Part shown: piece after piece, positions 1,414 to 11,030 of the stretch
How positions within the stretch are numbered: position 1 is the stretch's first letter
Layout: each line of letters begins with the position of its first letter
NCBI RefSeq assembly: GCF_029504745.1
Contig: NZ_JAQFIQ010000063.1
Location: 1-11,030, forward strand
Direction: 5' to 3'
Source of the DNA: Breznakia sp. PF5-3
GTDB lineage: Bacteria > Bacillota_I > Bacilli_A > Erysipelotrichales > Erysipelotrichaceae
Length of the DNA stretch: 11,030 bases
Notes under the pieces: generated by a model
Database searches by the model: none
What the model was told of the DNA's origin: nothing
What the model saw: only the letters and a program-made list of their open reading frames with translations
Translations under genes and position numbers: made by a program

Positions 1414-2385
1414 TTACATATTTGCTCCTGCCATAATTAACATTTCCACAATCTCAGTAAACCCATTTTCAGAAGCATAATAAATAGCACTGTGTTGATC
1501 ATTATCAACTGTATTAACCTCTACCTCATTTTCTATCAAAACATTTACAACATCATTGGCTCCTACCATGGCTGCTACTATCAATGGTGTTTCTCCTGCT
1601 TCGTTTTTCACATTGATATCTGCTCCATGATTTATCAATGATATACTTGCAAATTTATTATGAAACTTACTTGCATAATGTAATGGTGCATTTCCATTTA
1701 ATAATTTCAAATTACTATCGGCTCCATTTTCTAAAAGCATATCTACCAAATGTAAGTTATTTTGTTTCATAGCCAAAATAAGTGCTGTTTCACCACCATC
1801 ATTTACAGCATTCACCTGTGTACTCTCTTGTTTAAGCAATACTAAAACAACCTCACTTTGGTTGTTGTACACCGCTTGATGTAATGGCCTATTCCCCACT
1901 GCATCACTACTTTGATTTTCCTCACTCAACAAGACAATAATATCTCTTAATCCATTGGCTGTCGCATGATCAAGAGCCTTATGCCCGTTATTATCAGAAA
2001 TACTTTTATCGGCACCTTGTTCCAACAAATATTTTGTCGCTTCACTTTTACCATTTATAACTGCATACATAAGTGCTGTTCTTCCATCTTTATCCGTACT
2101 ATCTATATCCAATCCACTTTGCAATAATAAAGATATAATATCTTTATTTCCATTCATTGCTACTTGATGCAGTGAAGTCATACTCATATTATTTGCTACA
2201 CTTGTATCTGCACCATTATCGATCAATAAACGTACGATGTCTTTTGAACCCTTAGCACAGGCATAAAATAATGCATTGTTACCAAGTGCATCTCGCTTAT
2301 TAATATCCAAACCACCTTTTTTAAGAAATGCTTCCACCACTCCCTTTTGTCCATTCTTACAAGCATTTAAAAATATTTTTTCCAT
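1414..2385 (-). CDS. Ankyrin-repeat protein (about 10 consecutive ANK repeats, 323 aa)
   Basis: The ANK consensus recurs about every 33 aa along the whole protein, for example DKDGRTALMYAVINGKSEATKYLLEQGADKS, NEAGETPLIVAAMVGANDVVNVLIENEVEVN and NGNAPLHYASKFHNKFASISLINHGADIN. AGGAGG at 2390-2395 precedes ATG 2385. There is no signal peptide. Confidence 0.92.
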   Translation of the reverse strand: MEKIFLNACKNGQKGVVEAFLKKGGLDINKRDALGNNALFYACAKGSKDIVRLLIDNGADTSVANNMSMTSLHQVAMNGNKDIISLLLQSGLDIDSTDKDGRTALMYAVINGKSEATKYLLEQGADKSISDNNGHKALDHATANGLRDIIVLLSEENQSSDAVGNRPLHQAVYNNQSEVVLVLLKQESTQVNAVNDGGETALILAMKQNNLHLVDMLLENGADSNLKLLNGNAPLHYASKFHNKFASISLINHGADINVKNEAGETPLIVAAMVGANDVVNVLIENEVEVNTVDNDQHSAIYYASENGFTEIVEMLIMAGANM

Positions 2386-2393
2386 AGTACCTC

Positions 2394-3995
2394 CTATATT
2401 TTCATTAATAAGTATTGAACTAAATTCTCATTATTATTTTCTGTTGCATATGCAAGTGCATTTTTACCTTCATTATTTACTTCATTAACATCCGGTTCTC
2501 CAAATTCAAATAACAAATCGACAAATGCTTTTGCATTTGAATGATTAGCATTTTTCGCTGCATACATCAGTGCTGTATTTCCATCGCTATCTTTTAATTT
2601 CATATCTGCATCTGCTTCCAACAAAGAAAGTAAGATATCTTCCATATATCTACTTTCCCCTAAACATACTGACATCAGTGCGGTTACTCCATTTAAATCA
2701 CATTTATTAACATCTACTTTTTGCTTAAACAATTCTTCTATGAAAACACCTTCAAACGTATAATTGTTATAACCGCTCGCTCGATCAACATTTCTACAAG
2801 TCAATGTTAATAAAGTATCCCCTGTATCATTTATTACCTGATTAAAATCAAAACCATGTTCTTTCATAAGTTTAAAAAGCTGTGGGATAACCTTATTCTC
2901 ATAAACGTTTCCACTTACTGATTTATATGAAGTAAGTGGATATGTTAAAGGAACTTTATCATTACTATCTTTTAAGTTTGGATCTGCATTCGCTTCCAAT
3001 AACAACTTAATAATATCTATATTTAATTTCATACAAGCGAAAGATAAAGGCAATTTACCTTCTAAATCAATAGAATCAACATAATAAGATTCCCCATAAA
3101 ATTCATTTGGATCACTCCCTAACTGCAACAAGCTAGCAACTGCTTCAACATCTTCTTTCGCAATTGCTTGCATCATATTCATTCCTTTGGTTTTGGCTTC
3201 CATAGAATCATCAGCGTCTACACCATTTAAAATTGCAGGAATTCTAACTTCTAAAGATGCAAATGCTATCTCTTTTGCTGTATGTCCATAATTATCCTTT
3301 TGATCAGGATCCAATCCCGCATCTATTAACAATTGAAGTATTTCAATAGCATCATTCATCTTTTTTAAGCTACGTTCATAATGCTCTTTTTGTGATTTTA
3401 AATGATCCTTATGTATCCGAACCAGCACCTCATTGCTTTCATCTATCACTTCATTCATTATCTTTTCATATGCTGGTTTGTCATATTTGTGAAAGCTTCC
3501 AGCTTCTCGTTGTGCATAATCACAAGCAAAATGTAATGCACTTTCTCCATCCTGACTTACAAAATCCAATTTCTTACCAGCATCAATAACCGCTTTAATA
3601 AAATCACGCTTGCCTCGTTGTGCAGCAATCAACAATGCATTCATACCATCATCACTCTTTCGAAGAATACTAACTCCATTATCCAACAACAACATAACAA
3701 GCTTATATTCATCAGCCCAAGAACAATAATCTCGACTATCACCATACACTATTTGATGAAGTATCGTATATCCATTGTGATCTTTGGTAGGAATGCTTAT
3801 TCCTTTGGCTAATAGTTTTTTTAATGAATCATAATCACCATGCTTAGCAATATAGTATGTAAGTGGCATACTATTATACTCTTCATCATAATTCTCTATT
3901 GCATCATATAACTGCCAAACTTCTTCTCTATGATCTTCTTTATCCCGGCTTTTATAAAAACTACTAATTTGGTATACTACATCATTTAAACTCAT
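2394..3995 (-). CDS. Ankyrin-repeat protein, irregular, with long insertions (533 aa)
   Basis: ANK units are present, for example DSDGNTALMYAAKNANHSNAKAFVDLLFEFGEPDVN, NNEGKNALAYATENNNENLVQYLL, SDDGMNALLIAAQRGKRDFIKAVIDAGKKLD and LEGKLPLSFACMKLNIDIIKLLLEANADPN. The start ATG 3995 overlaps the upstream stop (ATGA) and has AAGGAGG 7 nt upstream. Its TAG stop (2394-2396) sits inside the SD of the next gene. Confidence 0.9.
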   Translation of the reverse strand: MSLNDVVYQISSFYKSRDKEDHREEVWQLYDAIENYDEEYNSMPLTYYIAKHGDYDSLKKLLAKGISIPTKDHNGYTILHQIVYGDSRDYCSWADEYKLVMLLLDNGVSILRKSDDGMNALLIAAQRGKRDFIKAVIDAGKKLDFVSQDGESALHFACDYAQREAGSFHKYDKPAYEKIMNEVIDESNEVLVRIHKDHLKSQKEHYERSLKKMNDAIEILQLLIDAGLDPDQKDNYGHTAKEIAFASLEVRIPAILNGVDADDSMEAKTKGMNMMQAIAKEDVEAVASLLQLGSDPNEFYGESYYVDSIDLEGKLPLSFACMKLNIDIIKLLLEANADPNLKDSNDKVPLTYPLTSYKSVSGNVYENKVIPQLFKLMKEHGFDFNQVINDTGDTLLTLTCRNVDRASGYNNYTFEGVFIEELFKQKVDVNKCDLNGVTALMSVCLGESRYMEDILLSLLEADADMKLKDSDGNTALMYAAKNANHSNAKAFVDLLFEFGEPDVNEVNNEGKNALAYATENNNENLVQYLLMKI

Positions 3996-4498
3996 TCCTC
4001 ATCCTCCTTAATCTTTCTCATAATATCATCTATATTCTTATACTCCTTAAAACCAATTTGATTGTTTATTTCAATGATACGTTGCTTGTTTTTCAATATA
4101 TAACAAACATCAACAAGTACTCTTAAAAAACGATCTCTACTCATCTCTTTAAAATGATCTATTTCAAATGTAAACATTGGTTGGCGATAATGATTACTCA
4201 ATTTCGCTTGTGACTGTATCTTTCTCACAATTTCTTCTATAACTGGTTTAGAACTTGTTAATGTTGTTTTTGTAAACAACATTAATCCTTCTTCTAAATA
4301 TTTCAAAGCCTCTTCATGCAATTCACTTTCTAAACAACATAATCCTAGATTAAATAAAATGGACGCATCTTTATTTCTTTCAAGTTTCTGTAACAACAAA
4401 ATCGCTGCCTCTACATATTGATGATTCATCATTAACAAAACAGCATCATCTTTTACAGTTATACTATTTACCATTTTATGACTTTCGCCTAATAACAT
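3992..4498 (-). CDS. Small all-helical TPR-like protein (168 aa), start re-assigned
   Basis: The ORF-track start at 4570 is a GTG with no SD and lies inside a stem-loop. ATG at 4498 (MLLGESHKMVNS...) has GGAGG (4503-4507) 4 nt upstream of the ATG. The TPR-like segment is YVEAAILLLQKLERNKDASILFNLGLCCLESELHEEALKYLEEGLMLF. The family assignment is tentative. Confidence 0.7.
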   Translation of the reverse strand: MLLGESHKMVNSITVKDDAVLLMMNHQYVEAAILLLQKLERNKDASILFNLGLCCLESELHEEALKYLEEGLMLFTKTTLTSSKPVIEEIVRKIQSQAKLSNHYRQPMFTFEIDHFKEMSRDRFLRVLVDVCYILKNKQRIIEINNQIGFKEYKNIDDIMRKIKEDEE

Positions 4499-4527
4499 AG
4501 CTATCCTCCAATTTCTATTCATACCAA

Positions 4528-4575
4528 AATAGGTACATACATACAATCCATAGTGTTTGTAAATATGCACCTATT
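4528..4575 (-). promoter_or_regulatory. Intra-cluster RNA stem-loop (possible partial terminator, attenuator or processing site)
   Basis: On the minus-strand RNA, AAUAGGUGCAUA (4575-4564) pairs with UAUGUACCUAUU (4539-4528). This gives 12 bp including one G-U, with a 24-nt loop, followed by UUGG. It lies in the 113-nt gap between the 150-aa gene and the TPR-like gene. Confidence 0.5.
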
Positions 4576-4611
4576 CTAATAACCAAAGCGTTTACTTCTC
4601 TACTTAAATTC

Positions 4612-5064
4612 TTATTTTCTCTTTGTTTCGCTACATTCAAATACTTTATCTATAAGATTATAACTTATCAGATATTTCTTACCCATTTCCACTTTAAACA
4701 CATTGGTACTTCTTGCTAATGATTTTGCCAGTTTACTAGTTGCCATTTTTTGATAATATTCTAAATCTAGTTCTACTTCTCCAGCAGGAACAAGGATACT
4801 ATTTCGAATTACCTTACCTGGATTTCTATTTATGGAATGTATTACAAATTCACTTTGTCCTGGATTCATAAGTACCTTTTCCTTTGGCAAGACTGGATAA
4901 TCAAAAACAACTTCCACTAAATTAGGATCTGACTCTAACATCTCCTTCTTTTTTTGTTTTTGCTTTTTTCCAGAAACAATCATTAAAACAACTAAACCTA
5001 CACACACGGTGCCAAATACTCCTAAAAACAAGGGAAGGTTATTGGCAATAAAATCTTCATTCAT
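4612..5064 (-). CDS. Single-pass membrane-anchored protein with a polybasic juxtamembrane segment and a roughly 100-aa cytoplasmic domain (150 aa), unknown family
   Basis: GGAG (5071-5074) lies 6 nt before ATG 5064. It has a short acidic N-terminus (MNEDFIANN), a TM segment LPLFLGVFGTVCVGLVVLMIVSG, then KKQKQKKKE. By the positive-inside rule the C-terminal domain is cytoplasmic. I recognise no family. Confidence 0.75.
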   Translation of the reverse strand: MNEDFIANNLPLFLGVFGTVCVGLVVLMIVSGKKQKQKKKEMLESDPNLVEVVFDYPVLPKEKVLMNPGQSEFVIHSINRNPGKVIRNSILVPAGEVELDLEYYQKMATSKLAKSLARSTNVFKVEMGKKYLISYNLIDKVFECSETKRK

Positions 5065-5114
5065 ACGGTTCTCCTTTCAACAATAACTGTTTTTTCTAAT
5101 CCATGGGTCACCCC

Positions 5115-5134
5115 ATAATAGATATGTCTATTAT
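5115..5134 (-). other. Short stem-loop 2 nt downstream of the 340-aa gene stop
   Basis: ATAATAGA (5115-5122) pairs with TCTATTAT (5127-5134), an 8-bp stem with a 4-nt loop. An adjacent, partly overlapping 5-bp stem is ATGGG (5103-5107) with CCCAT (5112-5116). No U-run follows on the minus strand, so it is not a canonical terminator. Confidence 0.4.
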
Positions 5135-5136
5135 TT

Positions 5137-6159
5137 CTAAAGCTCATAAATAAATTGTTTTTGTTTTTTAAATACTACTTCCAAATGATTACATAAGTTA
5201 CCATACTTCATATAATAAGGTAATTGAGGATTTATATATCCAAAGTAATATACATAATTCTTTCCTTGGTATTGAAAGCTCATTGAGCGTTTTTGATTTG
5301 ACATAGCATTATTATATTTTGGAGGTGTTACCTTTACACTTTTCATCTGTGCAATTTCAAATGTTTCTTCATCAATGGTAAGAAATGTATCATCCAATAC
5401 AAGTCGTGATGGAATTTCTTTTGAAATAGCTTTTAATTGTTTTCTAAACGAGAAAAAAGGAATACCTAAACACATCATCAAAATCATTGCTATCATCGCT
5501 AAAAACGGTCCAATCATTTCTGATGAGAATGCGTTGACTCCTGTATTCAATAACACAAGATACAAACCAATGCATATAACTGATGAAAGGCTAAGGAAAA
5601 TAATCCATAATTTCGTTTGTCGCTTATATTCCTTAAGCATCAAATCATCTTTAGGAATATGATAAGTTTTCTTCAACCCTTCTGTTTCTATAACATCCTC
5701 AACCTCTTCATCTTGAGTTGCTTTTTCATTTCTCAACAAGTAAATATCACTAATTAATTTTTGAAACGTCTTTTTTGAAAATCCACTACACCGATAATCT
5801 TTTCGCTTATTATCTCCATGAATCACACGAATATAAAAGGTCTTCCCTGTAGGTAATCCATTTACATAATGGTTTACAATATATGATGAGATAACTGGTT
5901 CATGCATTGATATTTTATGATATGCTCTATTAAAGAGTGAAAAAACAATAGCTTCATCATCTACAGTTACTTTAATATAGTGTAATAGTGCATTCATAAC
6001 TCCTAATACAAAAGCAATCCCTAAAATAATAGTAACCACTTCATCAAGTTTTTTATCCCCTAATAACATAAAAAGAAGTATTAAAATAAAACTACTTACA
6101 AAAATTGCCCAAACAAAATATGAACATAATTTATATACGGAACTTTTATAAACTTTCAT
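5137..6159 (-). CDS. Four-TM membrane protein with duplicated [TM hairpin + soluble module] architecture (340 aa), possibly bPH-like
   Basis: GAGGAGG (6164-6170) lies upstream of ATG 6159. TM1 is LCSYFVWAIFVSSFILILLFMLLG, TM2 is VVTIILGIAFVLGVMNALLHYI, TM3 is LWIIFLSLSSVICIGLYLVLL and TM4 is IGPFLAMIAMILMMCLGIPFFSF. Each hairpin is followed by a soluble module that opens with a similar strand (KVTVDDEAIVFS and RLVLDDTFLTID). Confidence 0.8.
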   Translation of the reverse strand: MKVYKSSVYKLCSYFVWAIFVSSFILILLFMLLGDKKLDEVVTIILGIAFVLGVMNALLHYIKVTVDDEAIVFSLFNRAYHKISMHEPVISSYIVNHYVNGLPTGKTFYIRVIHGDNKRKDYRCSGFSKKTFQKLISDIYLLRNEKATQDEEVEDVIETEGLKKTYHIPKDDLMLKEYKRQTKLWIIFLSLSSVICIGLYLVLLNTGVNAFSSEMIGPFLAMIAMILMMCLGIPFFSFRKQLKAISKEIPSRLVLDDTFLTIDEETFEIAQMKSVKVTPPKYNNAMSNQKRSMSFQYQGKNYVYYFGYINPQLPYYMKYGNLCNHLEVVFKKQKQFIYEL

Positions 6160-6178
6160 ATAACCTCCTCTACTTCAA

Positions 6179-6195
6179 CACTTATCATGTAAGTG
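6179..6195 (-). other. Small stem-loop just upstream of the SD of the 340-aa gene
   Basis: CACTTA (6179-6184) pairs with TAAGTG (6190-6195), a 6-bp stem with a 5-nt loop, in the 63-nt gap between the 153-aa and 340-aa genes. No U-run follows. Confidence 0.3.
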
Positions 6196-6222
6196 CAATC
6201 TAAAAATCAATAACAAGCTTCT

Positions 6223-6684
6223 TTATACAATCAAATCCTGTACTAAATGTTTTTTTATCAAATTCTTTGTCTCTTCCACCGTTGTAGGCCAATTTTCAAA
6301 ACATGCCTTACCCAATTCAACCGAATTCACCATATGAAAAAAAACAATTGGTTTATGGATTCCATCACAAACAATAAATGCGAAATTCTCTTCTTTTGGA
6401 AATGCTTTTGTATTTACAATCCAATCCCCATATTCATAAACGGCATCTCCATATCCTGAAAATATATAACTAATTCTTTCTTCTGGAGGCAATGCATTTT
6501 CAATTCTTATCTTTTGCCATTGCTTCTCTACATATTCAAATTTATCTGGATCTAGATGATAAGAAAGACTCCAAAAAAGCATGGATGGTTTCCCATTTAA
6601 TTTCAAAGTCTTTTCTACCATATCGATACTTTCTTTCATCACTGTTTTTTCTATTACCACTTCATAATATTCTAATTTATCCAC
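6223..6684 (-). CDS. Hypothetical acidic cytosolic protein (153 aa), first gene of the cluster, GTG start
   Basis: The start codon at 6684-6682 reads GTG on the minus strand and is preceded by AAGGAG (6699-6694) with a 9-nt spacer. There is no TM segment or signal peptide, and I recognise no family. Confidence 0.75.
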   Translation of the reverse strand: MDKLEYYEVVIEKTVMKESIDMVEKTLKLNGKPSMLFWSLSYHLDPDKFEYVEKQWQKIRIENALPPEERISYIFSGYGDAVYEYGDWIVNTKAFPKEENFAFIVCDGIHKPIVFFHMVNSVELGKACFENWPTTVEETKNLIKKHLVQDLIV

Positions 6685-6827
6685 ACAAATACTCCTTCAA
6701 ACTATCACCATTTAAAATACCCTCTAATATATAGATGCAAAAAAACATAAATAGGTGCACTTTTTATGTTTTTTTTTACTTATTTCTTTTCGATTATGCT
6801 TTTCTCTTCAGCATAAAAAAGGAATAA

Positions 6828-6836
6828 TGCTATAAT
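6828..6836 (+). promoter_or_regulatory. Extended -10 promoter element (TGCTATAAT) for the FUSC-like gene
   Basis: TG-C-TATAAT lies at 6828-6836. The -35 is only weak (TTCAGC, 6807-6812). The predicted TSS is near 6843, followed by GAGGTGG (6847-6853) and ATG 6858. Confidence 0.55.
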
Positions 6837-6857
6837 AATGTAAATCGAGGTGGTTTT

Positions 6858-7343
6858 ATGCTTCCAGGAGCAAGAATTTATAAAACATTAATTGCAGTTA
6901 CAATATCTTTGATTCTAAGTAGATATATTTTAGGATTATCTGGATTTTATATGACAATTGCAGTTGTACTATCCATGAAAACCGATCCCCAAAAATCATT
7001 GATCTATGGAAAAAACAGAATCATTGGTACCTTGCTTGGTGGTATTCTAGGCTATATTATCATGGTTGTTATCCGCCATACGCCTTTTATAAGTGAAGAT
7101 TCTATTTGGATGCTTTTCATAAATGTAGGTTGTATCTTCTTGTTGCTATGGTTTTCTAAACTTACGCATATGTCGGAAACAGGAGCGGCATTGGGGTGTG
7201 TTATCTTCTTCTCAATCACATTGATTCGCTTTAATGCGCCAATCTTTGACTATGTCTTTATTCGTGTCTTAGAAACAACCATTGGTGTTATTATTGCCAT
7301 GGGAGTAAATTATATAAAACTTCCTAAATCAACTACAAAATAA
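6858..7343 (+). CDS. FUSC / aromatic-acid-exporter (ArAE_1, UPF0421)-like integral membrane protein, membrane domain only (161 aa)
   Basis: The N-terminus MLPGARIYKTLIAVTISLILSRYILGL...KNRIIGTLLGGILGYIIMVVI matches the pattern I recall for this family (xGxRxxKTxIAxxLAxxIA ... RxxGTxxG). It has about 4-5 TM segments. SD GAGGTGG is present. Confidence 0.65.
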   Translation: MLPGARIYKTLIAVTISLILSRYILGLSGFYMTIAVVLSMKTDPQKSLIYGKNRIIGTLLGGILGYIIMVVIRHTPFISEDSIWMLFINVGCIFLLLWFSKLTHMSETGAALGCVIFFSITLIRFNAPIFDYVFIRVLETTIGVIIAMGVNYIKLPKSTTK

Positions 7344-7358
7344 ATGTTGCTTTTTTTA

Positions 7359-7389
7359 TTGACTTAGAGTCCACTCCAACTGATACAAT
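7359..7389 (+). promoter_or_regulatory. MerR-type promoter: -35 and -10 separated by 19 bp, with a dyad in the spacer
   Basis: TTGACT (7359-7364), a 19-nt spacer (7365-7383), then TACAAT (7384-7389). The imperfect dyad TTAGAGT-CC-ACTCCAA spans 7364-7379. It lies 42 nt upstream of the aldo/keto reductase ATG. Confidence 0.55.
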
Positions 7390-7430
7390 TAAGTTATCAA
7401 ATTAGATAAGTAAGAAAGAGGTTTATAAAA

Positions 7431-8396
7431 ATGGAATATTGTAAAATAGGAGTTTCTAATAAGCAAGTATCAAAATTGTGTTTAGGTTGTATGACTTTTG
7501 GAGATAATCAAACACAATTTCATGATTGGACATTGCCTTATGAAGAATCAAAAGAAATCATCAAACACGCACTAGATTTGGGAATTAATTTCTTTGATAC
7601 TGCAAATGTTTATTCAAAAGGAACAAGTGAAGAATATTTAGGAAGAGCATTGAAAGAGTTAGATGTAAATCGTGAAGATGTCTTTATTGCTACTAAAGTT
7701 TATTTTAATGATGGCAAATTATCTAAAGAAGCAATTAATAGAGAAATTGAATTATCATTAAAACGATTACAAACAGATTATATCGATTTATATATTATTC
7801 ATCGTTTTGATAAAACAACACCCATAGAGGAAACCATGAACGCTTTAAATGATTTAGTACAATCTGGCAAAGTTAAAAACATTGGAGCAAGCGCAATGTA
7901 TGGATACCAATTCCATAATATGCAAGAAATTGCTGATAAAAACGGTTGGGCAAAATTTGTGACAATGCAAAATCATTACAATATGCTATATCGAGAAGAC
8001 GAAAGGGAATTAATACCTGTTTGTAATCAATATAAAACATTGTTAACACCTTATAGTCCTCTAGCATCTGGAAGATTAGCGCGAGCTGAATGGCATACAA
8101 ACACAAAAAGAAGTCAAACAGATAATACAGCTGCTCATAAATATGATGGCTTTGAGGAAGCTGATAAAAAGATTGTAGGTAGAGTTTTAGAATTAGCAAA
8201 AAAGTATAATTGTACAATGACACAGATTGCTCTATCCTATTTATTTGAAAAAGGTGTAACAGCACCAATTATTGGGGCAAGTAAAATCAAATATTTAGAC
8301 GATGCATGTGGAGCTTTCCATGTTCATTTAACCATAGAGGATATAGCATACTTGGAAGAATTGTACATTCCCCATTCTATTGTTGGGGCATTATAA
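7431..8396 (+). CDS. Aldo/keto reductase family oxidoreductase (321 aa)
   Basis: The N-terminal block is classic for AKRs: LGCMTFGD...ALDLGINFFDTANVYSKGTSEEYLGRAL. Further family blocks are DYIDLYIIHRFD, GKVKNIGASAMYGYQ and PIIGASKIKYLDD. SD AAGAGG is present upstream. Confidence 0.95.
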   Translation: MEYCKIGVSNKQVSKLCLGCMTFGDNQTQFHDWTLPYEESKEIIKHALDLGINFFDTANVYSKGTSEEYLGRALKELDVNREDVFIATKVYFNDGKLSKEAINREIELSLKRLQTDYIDLYIIHRFDKTTPIEETMNALNDLVQSGKVKNIGASAMYGYQFHNMQEIADKNGWAKFVTMQNHYNMLYREDERELIPVCNQYKTLLTPYSPLASGRLARAEWHTNTKRSQTDNTAAHKYDGFEEADKKIVGRVLELAKKYNCTMTQIALSYLFEKGVTAPIIGASKIKYLDDACGAFHVHLTIEDIAYLEELYIPHSIVGAL

Positions 8397-8443
8397 AGCA
8401 ATAGACAAGTATAAAAAATTAAAGGCCATTCATTTCGCTATAT

Positions 8444-8479
8444 AAAAAAACCAGAATTTTTTTGAATTCTGGTTTTTTT
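8444..8479. terminator. Bidirectional Rho-independent terminator shared by the AKR gene (+) and the WYL operon (-)
   Basis: An A7 run (8444-8450), then stem CCAGAATT (8451-8458) pairing with AATTCTGG (8465-8472), a 6-nt loop, and a T7 run (8473-8479). Confidence 0.9.
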
Positions 8480-8503
8480 ATTAGTCTACACAAGCTAAAA
8501 TCT

Positions 8504-8746
8504 TCAAACTACTTTCAAATCATAAGAACCTTCATAGATTGGAACCAATTGCATAAAGTATGGTTCTAAAAACTCATTGATAACCTTACACAGTTCCTCA
8601 GGTGTTTGTTTTTTATCACCCGTTTGTCTTAATTCCACAACTTCATTGCCACAAGCTCCTGCACTATGTAAACGATATCCAATCTTTTTATTTTCTAAAT
8701 ATTGATTTGCTTGATACATTTTATTAACATCTAAAACTTTACTCAT
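8504..8746 (-). CDS. Hypothetical small protein (80 aa), last gene of the WYL operon
   Basis: GGGTGA SD lies upstream of ATG 8746, and the gap to the preceding gene is 30 nt. The strong terminator lies 25 nt downstream. There is no TM segment, and I recognise no family. Confidence 0.6.
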   Translation of the reverse strand: MSKVLDVNKMYQANQYLENKKIGYRLHSAGACGNEVVELRQTGDKKQTPEELCKVINEFLEPYFMQLVPIYEGSYDLKVV

Positions 8747-8776
8747 ATTATCACCCTGTATGTATCATAGCATAGC

Positions 8777-9391
8777 TTATCGAATAATATCCATCATTTT
8801 GAAAATGTCTTCTGAAGCCATTTGGAATTTAGACTTTTCAATCAAAATATTTTTACCCGTCATGATATACGATGGAAAAATTCGTTTGCCATCATAATAC
8901 AACTCACTATTTCTAAGTTTATATGTTGAAATAGATGGTACTGCATTCTTTTTGCTTGCCTTCTTTGTTATCATATTAAACGCCTTTTTCGCAACATCTC
9001 CCATCAACATAACAACTTCTAAATTTTCAAATAAAGCAAGCTCCTTTTCTAATATCTGAGCATGATCTTTAATTTTTGCTGTTTCAATTGCATATTCATC
9101 CTTTGGTGTTTTCACCGCATTCGTAATATAGATACCTGCATCAATAATTTCCTGAATATCTTCAACCTCTATTCCAGCTGCATGAAACAATGCAATGGTT
9201 GTCTCCATATAGAGAGGATTTTTCTTATCACTATAAAAATCATCTTTTACATCATTCGCTACAACCTCATTGATCATAATTGCTTTTATCTTATCTGGAT
9301 GTATTTCAAAATCAGGTAGATAAGAAAGCATTTTATCTCCATCCACATAATGCTCTTTAATATACCCTTCCAACTCTTTTTTTACATTCAT
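8777..9391 (-). CDS. Uracil-DNA glycosylase superfamily (family 4/5-like fold) protein, divergent at the catalytic motifs (204 aa), start re-assigned
   Basis: It is co-linear by eye with the family-4 UDG blocks: AIMINEVV (position of GEGPG), GIYITNAVK (vYITNxVKc), VVMLMGDVAKKAF (ivxLGxxA) and RIFPSYIMTG (vFPxxHPSxxLR). ATG 9391 has AGGTG 6 nt upstream. The GTG at 9400 in the ORF track has no SD. Confidence 0.65.
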   Translation of the reverse strand: MNVKKELEGYIKEHYVDGDKMLSYLPDFEIHPDKIKAIMINEVVANDVKDDFYSDKKNPLYMETTIALFHAAGIEVEDIQEIIDAGIYITNAVKTPKDEYAIETAKIKDHAQILEKELALFENLEVVMLMGDVAKKAFNMITKKASKKNAVPSISTYKLRNSELYYDGKRIFPSYIMTGKNILIEKSKFQMASEDIFKMMDIIR

Positions 9392-9392
9392 A

Positions 9393-10280
9393 TTAAGCAC
9401 CTACTTTCTTAATTGCTTCTTCGTGAAGCTTTACTATTTTTTGTCTAAGTCTTTCTGGTTTTATAATCTCTACTTCGCCCCCCATTGATAACAAAAAGGA
9501 ATCCATCCATTCATCTATCAATAGGTTTACTTTCACACTTACGCCTGTTGAAACCTCTTCGATTGCACTTCTTGCAAAGATATCATACACACGATAAGCC
9601 ACCCGTTTAGAAAATAGAAATTCACAATATTCATAATCCTTCTTATCCACTTGTACCTCATTATAGGTAAGTCTAGAAAAGGTTTTTTCTTGTACTTCTA
9701 TTTTTAAAATACGAGTAAGTCGAAACATACGCATAGCTGCTCGTTTATGACAATATCCTTCTAAATACCATCCACCTCCTTGATATTTCAAATAGTATGG
9801 GTCTACCATACGTAAAGAATGACCATTTACTCCATGATAGGCAATGATGATTGTTTGTGTTTGCAAGATTGCTTTTTTAAGTTTTTGAAAAAGATCAATA
9901 TCCGCATTTTTATCATCACCCCATCTAGTTAAATCAATTTTCAACCAATCTTCATCTAAATGTTCAAAACCATTTAACTTCGCTAATATCGATTTTATAT
10001 TCCAGTGTTCACTTTCTTCTACAGCTTTTAAAATAGCTAATAAAGATGTCATCTCTTCCTCGTTAAACAACGCTTTATCCAAGATAAAATCATCCTTTAA
10101 ATAGATTCCTCCTTGATAACCAACATTTGCATATATTGGTATTCCAGCTTGACTTAAAGAATCAATATCTCGATAAATCGTTCGTGTCGATACTTCAAAT
10201 TTTACTGCTAATTCTTCAGCAGTAGTTTTTCTTTTTTCCAATAAATAATAAAGAATATAAAACAATCTGCTTTTTTCCAT
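9393..10280 (-). CDS. YafY-family transcriptional regulator: N-terminal HTH, then WYL domain, then C-terminal extension (295 aa)
   Basis: The HTH is KTTAEELAVKFEVSTRTIYRDIDSLSQAGIPIY. The WYL-type core is MVDPYYLKYQGGGWYLEGYCHKRAAMRMFRLTRI. SD AGAGGTG lies upstream of ATG 10280. The TAA stop (9395-9393) lies 1 nt before the next gene's ATG. Confidence 0.9.
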   Translation of the reverse strand: MEKSRLFYILYYLLEKRKTTAEELAVKFEVSTRTIYRDIDSLSQAGIPIYANVGYQGGIYLKDDFILDKALFNEEEMTSLLAILKAVEESEHWNIKSILAKLNGFEHLDEDWLKIDLTRWGDDKNADIDLFQKLKKAILQTQTIIIAYHGVNGHSLRMVDPYYLKYQGGGWYLEGYCHKRAAMRMFRLTRILKIEVQEKTFSRLTYNEVQVDKKDYEYCEFLFSKRVAYRVYDIFARSAIEEVSTGVSVKVNLLIDEWMDSFLLSMGGEVEIIKPERLRQKIVKLHEEAIKKVGA

Positions 10281-10297
10281 AACACACCTCTAAAATT

Positions 10298-10306
10298 ACT
10301 ATACCA
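10298..10306 (-). promoter_or_regulatory. Candidate extended -10 element (TGGTATAGT) for the WYL regulator operon
   Basis: The minus strand reads TG-G-TATAGT at 10306-10298. No good -35 was found. It would give a very short leader that starts at about the SD. Confidence 0.3.
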
Positions 10307-10315
10307 TAATTATCT

Positions 10316-10330
10316 TGACATCTTTTGTCA
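10316..10330. promoter_or_regulatory. Short palindrome TGACA-N5-TGTCA in the divergent regulator/maa control region (candidate operator)
   Basis: TGACA (10316-10320) and TGTCA (10326-10330) are reverse complements. The left arm overlaps a consensus TTGACA hexamer (10315-10320). The arms are only 5 bp, so this could be chance. Confidence 0.3.
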
Positions 10331-10342
10331 TATTGCTATTCA

Positions 10343-10351
10343 TGTTATAAT
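10343..10351 (+). promoter_or_regulatory. Extended -10 promoter (TGTTATAAT) placed to give a leaderless acetyltransferase mRNA
   Basis: TG-T-TATAAT lies at 10343-10351, and the A of ATG 10358 is 7 nt after the last T of the -10. There is no Shine-Dalgarno sequence in between. Confidence 0.55.
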
Positions 10352-10357
10352 CTAACA

Positions 10358-10921
10358 ATGAAAAAGAAAACACTAAGTGAAAAAGAAAAAATGCTCCAAG
10401 GACTTCCCTATAATGCAAGCAATCCTCGCCTTGTCCTAGAAAGAGATCGAGCGGCACGTATTTTAAATCGTTACAATCGAAGAACTTTTCACGAAACAAA
10501 TATGCGTAGTAGAACTTTACGCAAATTGCTCAACACATCTGGTAATTTTTGGATTAAACCACCCTTTCATTGTGATTATGGATATAATATTTTCATTGGA
10601 AAAGATCTCTTATGCAATTATGGTTGTGTAATGCTCGATGTATGTAAGATAACAATCGGTGATAATGTATTATTAGGTCCTGGTGTAAAGTTGTTTACTG
10701 CTGCTCATGCTATTAACCCTATAGAGCGAAAAAATGGAGTTGAATTTGGTAAACCAATCACTATCCATAATAATGTATGGATTGGTGGAGGATCAATTGT
10801 TCTTCCTGGTGTTGAAATTGGTGAAAATAGTATCATTGGTGCAGGAAGTGTTGTTAGTAAATCCATCCCTGCAAATGTCGTTGCTGTAGGAAATCCATGT
10901 AAAGTCATAAAGAATATATAA
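10358..10921 (+). CDS. maa: Maltose/galactoside O-acetyltransferase family (Mac N-terminal domain + left-handed beta-helix hexapeptide repeats), 187 aa, start re-assigned
   Basis: It aligns by eye along its whole length with E. coli Maa as I recall it: SEKEKMLQGLPYNA...RILNRYN, HCDYGYNIFIGKD, CVMLDVCKITIGDNVLLGPGV, GKPITIHNNVWIGGGSIVLPGVEIGENSIIGAGSVV and VGNPCKVIK. The ORF-track start at 10325 is a TTG with an N-terminal extension absent from Maa. I cannot separate Maa from LacA-type specificity. Confidence 0.88.
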   Translation: MKKKTLSEKEKMLQGLPYNASNPRLVLERDRAARILNRYNRRTFHETNMRSRTLRKLLNTSGNFWIKPPFHCDYGYNIFIGKDLLCNYGCVMLDVCKITIGDNVLLGPGVKLFTAAHAINPIERKNGVEFGKPITIHNNVWIGGGSIVLPGVEIGENSIIGAGSVVSKSIPANVVAVGNPCKVIKNI

Positions 10922-10936
10922 AAACAGTCACTATTT

Positions 10937-11030
10937 TGAAGTGAACCCAATTAGTTGGACACAATAATTAAATAGTCGTTAAGGACTGATTCCTGAATTC
11001 CACAGGAGTTAGTCCTTTTAATGTTTTTGT
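10937..11030 (+). mobile_element. Possible left end of an IS3-family (IS150-group-like) insertion sequence, truncated by the window edge
   Basis: TGAAGTGAACCCAATTAGTTGGACACAAT starts with the TG dinucleotide of IS3-family ends. It resembles the pattern TGxAxTGxACCC...GTTGGACA that I recall from IS150-group inverted repeats. No transposase ORF lies inside the window, so this rests on memory of the IR pattern only. Confidence 0.25.
10981..11029 (+). terminator. Strong stem-loop followed by a U-rich tract, probable terminator of the acetyltransferase gene
   Basis: AAGGACTGATTCCTG (10981-10995) pairs with CAGGAGTTAGTCCTT (11003-11017). This gives 15 bp including two G-U pairs, with a 7-nt loop, followed by TTAATGTTTTTGT. 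Confidence 0.5.

Follow-up and report, generated by a model that had tools for sequence, protein, structure and literature searches.

Gene content of the window

The stretch of DNA analyzed here, which we refer to as the window, is the whole 11,030-bp contig of Breznakia sp. PF5-3 (Erysipelotrichaceae). It carries a run of six minus-strand genes, and our main finding is that the three distal members of this run, TPR168, ANK533 and ANK323, form a cassette that recurs in distant taxa. A preliminary description of this DNA had taken all six genes for one unit. Its six open reading frames (ORFs) with Shine-Dalgarno (SD) sites are confirmed by ORF calls and by reading of the sequence, in which a site of the GGAG or AGGAGG type stands 5-9 nt before each ORF, and the proteins of the window are exact matches to NCBI entries MDF9825811-15.

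In the direction of transcription, the run opens with P153 (6223-6684, on the minus strand like all that follow), a soluble, acidic protein (pI 5.1) of 153 aa with a GTG start. It continues with P340 (5137-6159), a 340-aa protein of four transmembrane (TM) segments built twice as two TM segments plus a soluble domain, and P150 (4612-5064), a single-pass membrane protein of 150 aa with a predicted N-out/C-in orientation. The charges flanking the 2+2 TM segments of P340 and the one segment of P150 fit a prediction of cytoplasmic soluble domains. Next come TPR168 (3992-4498), 168 aa long from the ATG at 4498, which is also the start in the NCBI annotation; ANK533 (2394-3995), a long ankyrin-repeat protein of 533 aa with irregular repeats and a helical insert; and ANK323 (1414-2385), with some 9-10 ankyrin repeats in 323 aa.

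Upstream of the TPR168 gene, gaps of 63, 72 and 113 nt separate P153, P340, P150 and TPR168. At 3992..3995 on the minus strand, the stop of TPR168 and the start of ANK533 overlap in an ATGA, an arrangement of translational coupling. At 2386..2397 on the same strand the TAG stop of ANK533 (2396-2394) lies inside the SD site of ANK323, ATAGGAGG, where it is embedded in TAGGAGG with 8 nt to the ANK323 ATG at 2385. Both features, read directly from the sequence, are as the preliminary description gave them, and the computed properties agree with its account of an acidic P153, a 4-TM P340 and a 1-TM P150, no signal peptide and cytoplasmic soluble domains. Indeed, none of the six proteins has a signal peptide, and the 11-kb contig holds no secretion gene. 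Scans for regulatory signals are no guide to operon boundaries: promoter-like sites in the window are fewer than in shuffled sequence, and terminator-like sites are all intragenic, with none between the six genes. The 113-nt gap before TPR168 holds a weak promoter candidate at 4602-4573.

The reported absence of a catalytic signature also stands. A motif check found no Walker A, HExxH or GxSxG motif in any of the six proteins, no enzyme profile matches them, and searches of Pfam and NCBIfam returned no nuclease, pore, NADase or ATPase domain. For P153, P340 and P150, nothing meaningful was obtained from Pfam, NCBIfam, PADLOC or PHROGs.

Family membership of the cassette proteins

The two ankyrin proteins are assigned far above the Pfam cutoff, Ank_2 matching ANK533 at E=5e-41 (139.5 bits) and ANK323 at E=5e-68 (226.2 bits) against a cutoff of 27.3. 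The label of TPR-like for the third protein holds at the level of the family rather than of the window protein itself, whose best match, TPR_12 at 23 bits, lies under the gathering cutoff of 30.1. Within the TPR168 family, 29 of 41 members match TPR or ANAPC3 profiles (best E=4e-10), and an AlphaFold2 (AF2) model of TPR168 with a pLDDT of 92.6 is all-helical, its nine helices being paired. Foldseek searches of this model against PDB and BFVD returned generic TPR folds only, and weakly (E≥0.02). An exhaustive HMMER search over 1.84 billion representatives, carried out for TPR168 as well as for P153 and P150, gave a TPR168 family of about 40 representatives of 150-183 aa, with an N-terminal MLLG and the motifs FNLALC, ILRLxVD and KNYxNV as its hallmarks.

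ANK323 is recognizable by a conserved N-terminus, MxxIFLNACKNGQKGVV, and is just 25-35% identical to unrelated ankyrin proteins; database names for its relatives are only 'ankyrin repeat domain-containing protein'. Full-length orthologues of ANK533 have 472-545 aa and are encoded directly upstream of ANK323 in most loci. Only ankyrin and TPR profiles match the proteins of the trio. PF28177, an extra Pfam family on some ANK323 homologues, led to no fused functional domain.

The likeness of these proteins to characterized ankyrin proteins is confined to the repeats. ANK323 and ANK533 match the ankyrin portions of the PADLOC models PDC-M72A, Ankyrin and MzaA (of the MZA system), but only repeats align (e.g. 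profile positions 232-373 of 392), and the cassette, unlike PDC-M72A and MzaA, comes without a sigma-factor or effector domain, partner genes or defense-island context; the other four of the six proteins gave no meaningful PADLOC match. Similarly, the best matches in NCBIfam and in phage collections are the Dot/Icm effectors of Legionella and Coxiella (AnkX/Y/G/H) and the ankyrin proteins of Wolbachia phage WO, which share with the cassette the property of being bacterial ankyrin proteins. Here too the resemblance stays at the 25-35% identity of unrelated repeats, and the NCBIfam scores of 55-145 bits against cutoffs of 450-1400 (e.g. 144 vs 600) reach no more than a quarter of those cutoffs. 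In contrast to those proteins, the cassette has no secretion system or signal, shares its operon with a TPR gene and extends to archaea. Literature searches turned up no account of the cassette.

A conserved three-gene cassette

ANK323 was used to anchor a scan of one genome per GTDB species, the alignment of TPR168 being too divergent for this purpose. Among the 58 anchored loci, 26 contain TPR168, one or two ANK533 genes and ANK323, while a further 13 have TPR168 directly followed by ANK323 and nine have ANK533 followed by ANK323, three of these at contig edges. The genes of these sets all lie on the same strand, with gaps that are mostly -14 to +60 nt. In the 22 canonical loci, the junction of TPR168 with ANK533 measures -14 to +110 nt (median about 10), and between ANK533 and ANK323 the median gap in other loci is some 16-21 nt. 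The locus with the closest relative of TPR168 (L004) may serve as an illustration, as it encodes in succession a TPR168 protein of 37% identity, a 540-aa ankyrin protein of 42% over its full length, a 323-aa ankyrin protein of 66%, and a DUF1266 protein.

Starting from the other end removes the bias of anchoring on ANK323. From three divergent TPR168 members of 21-27% identity, we again encountered an ankyrin gene of about 526 aa and then one of 323-325 aa, as far as the contig permitted; L075, which has a DUF1266 gene in front of the TPR gene, and L076 are among the loci in which a TPR168-family gene is followed by ankyrin genes. Thus the unit is TPR168-ANK533-ANK323, in an order, strand and tight spacing that are conserved over distant taxa. 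To this extent the preliminary description was right, since the trio that it saw as a coupled, non-enzymatic repeat module without secretion signals is conserved in dozens of genomes.

The three genes evolve at different levels of constraint, mean pairwise identity being 62% for ANK323, 36% for ANK533 and 28% for TPR168, and they co-diverge (Spearman 0.46-0.60). Several apparent gene fusions were also encountered. A metagenome-assembled genome (MAG) of Methanomethylophilaceae (L053) has at 6786-8504 a single 572-aa ORF in which residues 13-418 match the 409-aa ankyrin protein of L057 at 68% and residues 419-565 match its TPR protein at 56%, the unfused counterparts in L057 lying at 8298-9987; this ORF is either a Rosetta-stone fusion or a stop codon lost in the MAG. 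P0090 and P0093, two database entries that come from short contigs, are apparent fusions of ANK533 with ANK323 and have no extra domain. These fusions support a physical association of the cassette proteins, with the reservation that they are of MAG or metagenomic origin.

Beyond the trio itself, the one companion that recurs is DUF1266 (PF06889), which does not occur in the window. It accompanies the cassette in 18 loci and is the gene immediately after ANK323 in Oscillospiraceae, Odoribacteraceae, Campylobacteraceae and Methanoplasma. A sequence search found no PDB relative of this family, and the one paper found to mention it deals with an unrelated topic. In Escherichia coli, the DUF1266 genes ybeR and ybeU stand beside Sel1/TPR genes and the chaperone genes hscC-djlB/djlC. 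The DUF1266 of the cassette resembles YbeR/YbeU in being paired with helical-repeat proteins, and the cassette differs from that cluster in its ankyrin proteins and, for the window itself, in having no DUF1266.

Two variants of the arrangement occur in archaea. In Methanimicrococcus and related Methanosarcinales (L010, L012, L015, L018), two tandem ANK533-like paralogues lie between TPR168 and ANK323, and a protein of about 500 aa with TPR and DUF4261 domains is encoded directly upstream. Five loci of Methanomassiliicoccales (L055, L057, L059, L064, L067) have the order TetR, a 410-aa ankyrin protein, a TPR168-like protein and ANK323, with an ANK533-like gene and DUF1266 downstream on the opposite strand; the TetR gene in this layout suggests regulated expression in that clade.

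The upstream genes lie outside the cassette

Relatives of the three upstream genes were found in other settings. P340 forms only four clusters at 90% identity among 5.8 billion proteins. Its homologues in L001 and L003 lie between an operon of a WYL regulator, a UDG-superfamily protein and an 80-aa protein (the WYL operon) on one side and a BtrH_N/DUF4872 gene, followed by a Mac acetyltransferase gene, on the other; in L002 the neighborhood is yet another one. None of the P340 homologues in L001, L002 and L003 has an ankyrin, TPR, P150 or P153 gene beside it. The family of P150 is small, with about 28 single-TM representatives of 143-168 aa, and its members in L005 and L072 have unrelated neighbors. 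Relatives of P153 occur only as a domain of three larger proteins, P0022 (426 aa), P0070 (346 aa) and P0078 (1005 aa), and the neighbors around P0022 (locus L073) are unrelated, with no ankyrin or TPR gene among them.

The P153 domain, of about 120 aa, constitutes an unnamed domain family and sits at the N-terminus, in the middle or near the C-terminus of these otherwise uncharacterized proteins. It occurs together with DUF6138 in P0078, and P0070 and P0078 have in common a helical C-terminal region after it. The structure of P340 is less tractable: its AF2 model, built from four sequences, has a pLDDT of 41 and shows a strand-rich segment and then a helix after each TM hairpin. There is no bPH (YdbT-like) or other Pfam match at E≤0.1 to go with this low-confidence model, the two halves of the protein have no detectable similarity that would reveal an internal duplication, and sequence searches of PDB gave nothing meaningful for P340 or for P153.

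In the examined contexts, homologues of P153, P340 and P150 do not co-occur with each other, and searches with single sequences and with family profiles found none of their relatives in the roughly 70 ankyrin-carrying loci. P153, P340 and P150 are therefore unrelated, rare, lineage-specific neighbors outside the conserved cassette, perhaps co-transcribed with it and perhaps not. The preliminary description had named a gene order conserved in no other genome as the sign of a chance juxtaposition. Since the order of the six genes is not conserved elsewhere, its claim for six genes fails; for the three distal genes, the linkage is conserved. The co-occurrence that it had proposed to look for, of P340 and P150 homologues with ankyrin or TPR genes, was never seen in these contexts.

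Distribution and horizontal transfer

Full-length orthologues of ANK323, at 47-66% identity, are present in 64 species from seven bacterial phyla and two archaeal orders. The bacterial carriers belong to Bacillota, Bacteroidota, Spirochaetota, Fusobacteriota, Elusimicrobiota (Endomicrobia), Synergistota and Campylobacterota, and the archaeal carriers comprise 19 genomes of Methanosarcinales (Methanimicrococcus, Methanolapillus) and Methanomassiliicoccales. Contamination of MAGs cannot explain the archaeal carriage, because complete isolate chromosomes of Methanolapillus and Methanimicrococcus are among the matches. The carriers are enriched in host-associated microbes of gut and mouth, including lineages of the termite gut that live with protists; the cassette is also found in free-living Pedobacter, Chitinophagales and Saprospiraceae.

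In a neighbor-joining (NJ) tree of ANK323, built without support values, archaea occupy at least three positions and are interleaved with termite-gut bacteria. Methanimicrococcus stands beside Endomicrobia, Methanolapillus with Breznakiella and Methanoplasma with Treponema, and the ANK323 of Breznakia groups with Oscillospiraceae and not with other Erysipelotrichaceae. This interleaving points to repeated, habitat-structured transfer that also crosses between the domains. As for possible vehicles, no orthologues were found in 50,697 phage records or in IMG/VR, and plasmid carriage amounts to one true copy, on a 44-kb plasmid of Bacteroides finegoldii (NZ_OY725934). Another PLSDB 'plasmid', NZ_CP084075.1 of Fusobacterium vincentii (L071), is 2.1 Mb long with a single annotated feature and is almost certainly a mislabeled chromosome.

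Genomic context of the cassette

The cassette has no constant company. Among 147 non-redundant flanking genes, three occurrences are the most that any family reaches, the recurrent families being housekeeping ones, and the 20 adjacent co-directional neighbors are mutually unrelated. The cassette is thus a self-contained, accessory module. The most suggestive setting is that of the B. finegoldii plasmid (NZ_OY725934.1, L070), on which the cassette and two DUF1266 genes lie inside an array of Imm5, PoNe-immunity and YfbM genes; an Imm6 gene is also found near the cassette in L004. The plasmid array prompted the idea of residence in immunity islands, which the census of flanking genes did not generalize. 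At the head of the same-strand array in L070 stands a 1685-aa 'Imm5 family immunity protein' (5930-10987), probably a giant polyimmunity protein.

Other features of the window lie beyond the six genes. On the minus strand at 8504-10280, an HTH-WYL-WCX regulator (9393-10280), a UDG-superfamily protein and an 80-aa protein form an operon with an overlap at 9393-9400, and the corresponding operon of the relative L001 (5002-6767) is 48-74% identical. In the window this operon directly adjoins a Mac acetyltransferase gene on the plus strand (10325-10921), which in L001 lies at 9208-9795. As P340 and a BtrH_N/Peptidase_C39-like/DUF4872 gene are inserted between the two in L001 and L003, the junction is a variable insertion spot. 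Whereas the window has its HTH-WYL-WCX regulator a few kb from the cassette, L075, an unrelated metagenomic locus, has one (9670-10498) about 1.5 kb downstream from the trio; these are two cases and may be a coincidence.

Divergent from P153, a FUSC_2/ArAE_1-like membrane protein of 161 aa is encoded on the plus strand at 6858-7343, and the AT-rich spacer of 173 nt between the two genes must hold both promoters. Members of the FUSC_2/ArAE_1 family are typically much longer than 161 aa.

Alternative explanations

The first alternative sees the whole six-gene array as a heterogeneous polyimmunity locus, in which unrelated orphan immunity proteins each counter a different toxin and the trio is a conserved sub-block. 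Such loci of polymorphic toxin systems are known to include Imm-Ank proteins and TPR fusions (Zhang et al. 2012, PMC3482391), and the array fits the published examples in its single strand, short gaps, freedom from enzymes and variable content, as well as in the Imm-Ank and TPR-fused proteins and the 2-TM immunity proteins that those examples contain. Each of the six families also occurs independently elsewhere, the P153 domain is found in large multi-domain proteins reminiscent of polyimmunity proteins, and the B. finegoldii plasmid places the trio within its array of Imm5, PoNe-immunity and YfbM genes. Both these loci and the acquired interbacterial defense clusters of Bacteroidales share with the cassette non-enzymatic, cytoplasmic binders of the ankyrin (and TPR-fused) kind in packed same-strand arrays, together with a horizontal spread among co-resident gut organisms and a toxin gene that may be absent. 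Against this, none of the six proteins matches the Pfam families Imm, SUKH or SuFu, and the contig has no toxin, Rhs, LXG/WXG, type VI or type VII secretion system or recombinase gene. Elsewhere the trio is flanked by housekeeping rather than immunity genes and extends to archaea. Unlike the Imm-Ank and polyimmunity loci, moreover, the cassette has a fixed order of three genes, a steep gradient of conservation, a conserved ANK323 and no known cognate toxin. We regard this explanation as unlikely.

The trio might instead serve some conserved cellular machine as an accessory chaperone, assembly factor or adaptor, with a co-chaperone-like TPR protein, ankyrin scaffolds and DUF1266 as a partner. 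The strong purifying selection on ANK323, with its mean identity of 62% across domains of life, suggests a conserved cellular ligand, DUF1266 genes of E. coli stand near chaperone genes, the loci lie among housekeeping genes and not in islands, and the best structural neighbors of TPR168 are the TPR domains that bind the tails of Hsp70 and Hsp90 (CHIP, Sti1), weak as these matches are (E≥0.02). However, any TPR domain would give such Foldseek matches, genes for chaperones, J-domain proteins or ATPases do not recur among the 147 genes flanking the cassette, and the patchy, transferred and habitat-structured distribution is more typical of accessory or conflict genes. An explanation along these lines appears improbable to us.

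The preliminary description had favored a complex on the cytoplasmic face of the membrane, with the ankyrin and TPR proteins docked on P340 and P150, and had offered two readings of it, a repeat-protein sensor coupled to a membrane effector, as in abortive-infection (Abi) defense, and a recruitment scaffold. One strand, good SD sites, the lack of a terminator-like site between the genes and a predicted topology with cytoplasmic soluble domains for P340 and P150 are all in keeping with such a system. Yet the roughly 70 cassette loci are empty of P340, P150 and P153 relatives by single-sequence and profile searches alike, the homologues of these proteins occupy unrelated contexts, and in the close relatives L001 and L003 P340 belongs to a different neighborhood, that of the WYL operon, BtrH_N and Mac. 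Across seven bacterial phyla and two archaeal orders the cassette has no conserved membrane partner, and the Abi-like variant finds no effector, no PADLOC match beyond generic ankyrin ones and no defense-island context. The membrane system is largely refuted by these comparative data, and we consider it very improbable. Equally hard to sustain is the idea that the ankyrin proteins are eukaryote-like effectors with which gut symbionts manipulate the cells of a host or of protists, as happens in Legionella, Wolbachia and symbionts of sponges: although carriers are enriched in host-associated gut and oral microbes, among them termite-gut lineages with protists, and the best NCBIfam matches are Dot/Icm Ank effectors, those scores fall far under the cutoffs and reflect the repeats only, signal peptides and secretion genes are absent, the N-terminus is conserved in monoderms, diderms and archaea despite their different export routes, free-living Pedobacter, Chitinophagales and Saprospiraceae have the cassette too, and known effectors do not come in an obligate operon with a small TPR gene.

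A model for the cassette

The explanation that we favor, and consider probable, takes the run of six for a lineage-specific juxtaposition in which the actual unit is the TPR168-ANK533-ANK323 cassette, a mobile module acting by binding and perhaps protective. The cassette would be co-translated from one transcript, and its three proteins most likely assemble into a soluble, cytoplasmic, non-catalytic hetero-oligomer that probably works by stoichiometric binding. Its cytoplasmic location is indicated by the lack of a signal peptide together with the conservation of the N-terminus in Gram-positive bacteria, Gram-negative bacteria and archaea. Within such a complex, the highly constrained ANK323 may provide the contact to a conserved ligand or partner, and ANK533 and TPR168, which evolve faster, would be the adaptor or specificity subunits. 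Horizontal transfer of the cassette has taken place many times, also between the Bacteria and Archaea that live together in the guts of arthropods and vertebrates.

As to function, our tentative guess is a protective binder that would sequester an incoming or endogenous protein in the manner of an immunity protein or antitoxin. We hold a protective or immunity-like role to be possible but doubtful. The preliminary description had set an immunity role aside for want of an adjacent toxin; this argument is too strong, since orphan and polyimmunity loci without toxins exist (PMC3482391), yet the tests of genomic context, too, speak only weakly for such a role. It is conceivable, and no more firmly held, that the trio, with or without DUF1266, represents a new class of enzyme-free, 'binder-only' conflict module that works in both domains. 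Such a module, self-contained and exchanged between Bacteria and Archaea of gut communities, might, again tentatively, protect its carrier by sequestering a conserved protein of an invader or toxin, or by shielding a universal cellular target.

Several considerations weigh against this explanation. Complex formation is suggested by operon structure, co-divergence and a few fusions from MAGs or short contigs, and the p-values of the Spearman coefficients are inflated, pairwise distances not being independent. The ORF calling in the compared loci was crude, the ANK323 tree is an NJ tree that carries no support values, and the six genes of Breznakia could still be one transcript. With regard to a protective role, no Imm family occurs among the 20 adjacent neighbors or the recurrent flank families listed, and only 1-2 of about 70 loci reside in an immunity island. 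Immunity proteins, which as a rule work alone and change rapidly, do not typically show a fixed, stoichiometric three-gene architecture or purifying selection as strong as that on ANK323. Finally, no means of delivering bacterial toxins into methanogens is known.

Significance

Adjacency on the same strand and good SD sites over-predict 'systems', and in the present case half of the proposed cluster survives comparison. What survives is an apparently undescribed and unusually mobile cassette, notable for its spread across domains and for its binder-only composition, the function itself being inferential. If it is a functional complex, it would be a compact, enzyme-free module of three proteins that is under strong selection while moving between bacterial phyla and the methanogens with which they share a gut habitat, and it would serve as a clean marker of gene flow between the domains in gut ecosystems. 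It would also be a candidate for a protective or adaptor mechanism that is independent of the type of cell envelope, and would offer a first way into the function of the TPR168 family and of DUF1266, both of them orphan families.

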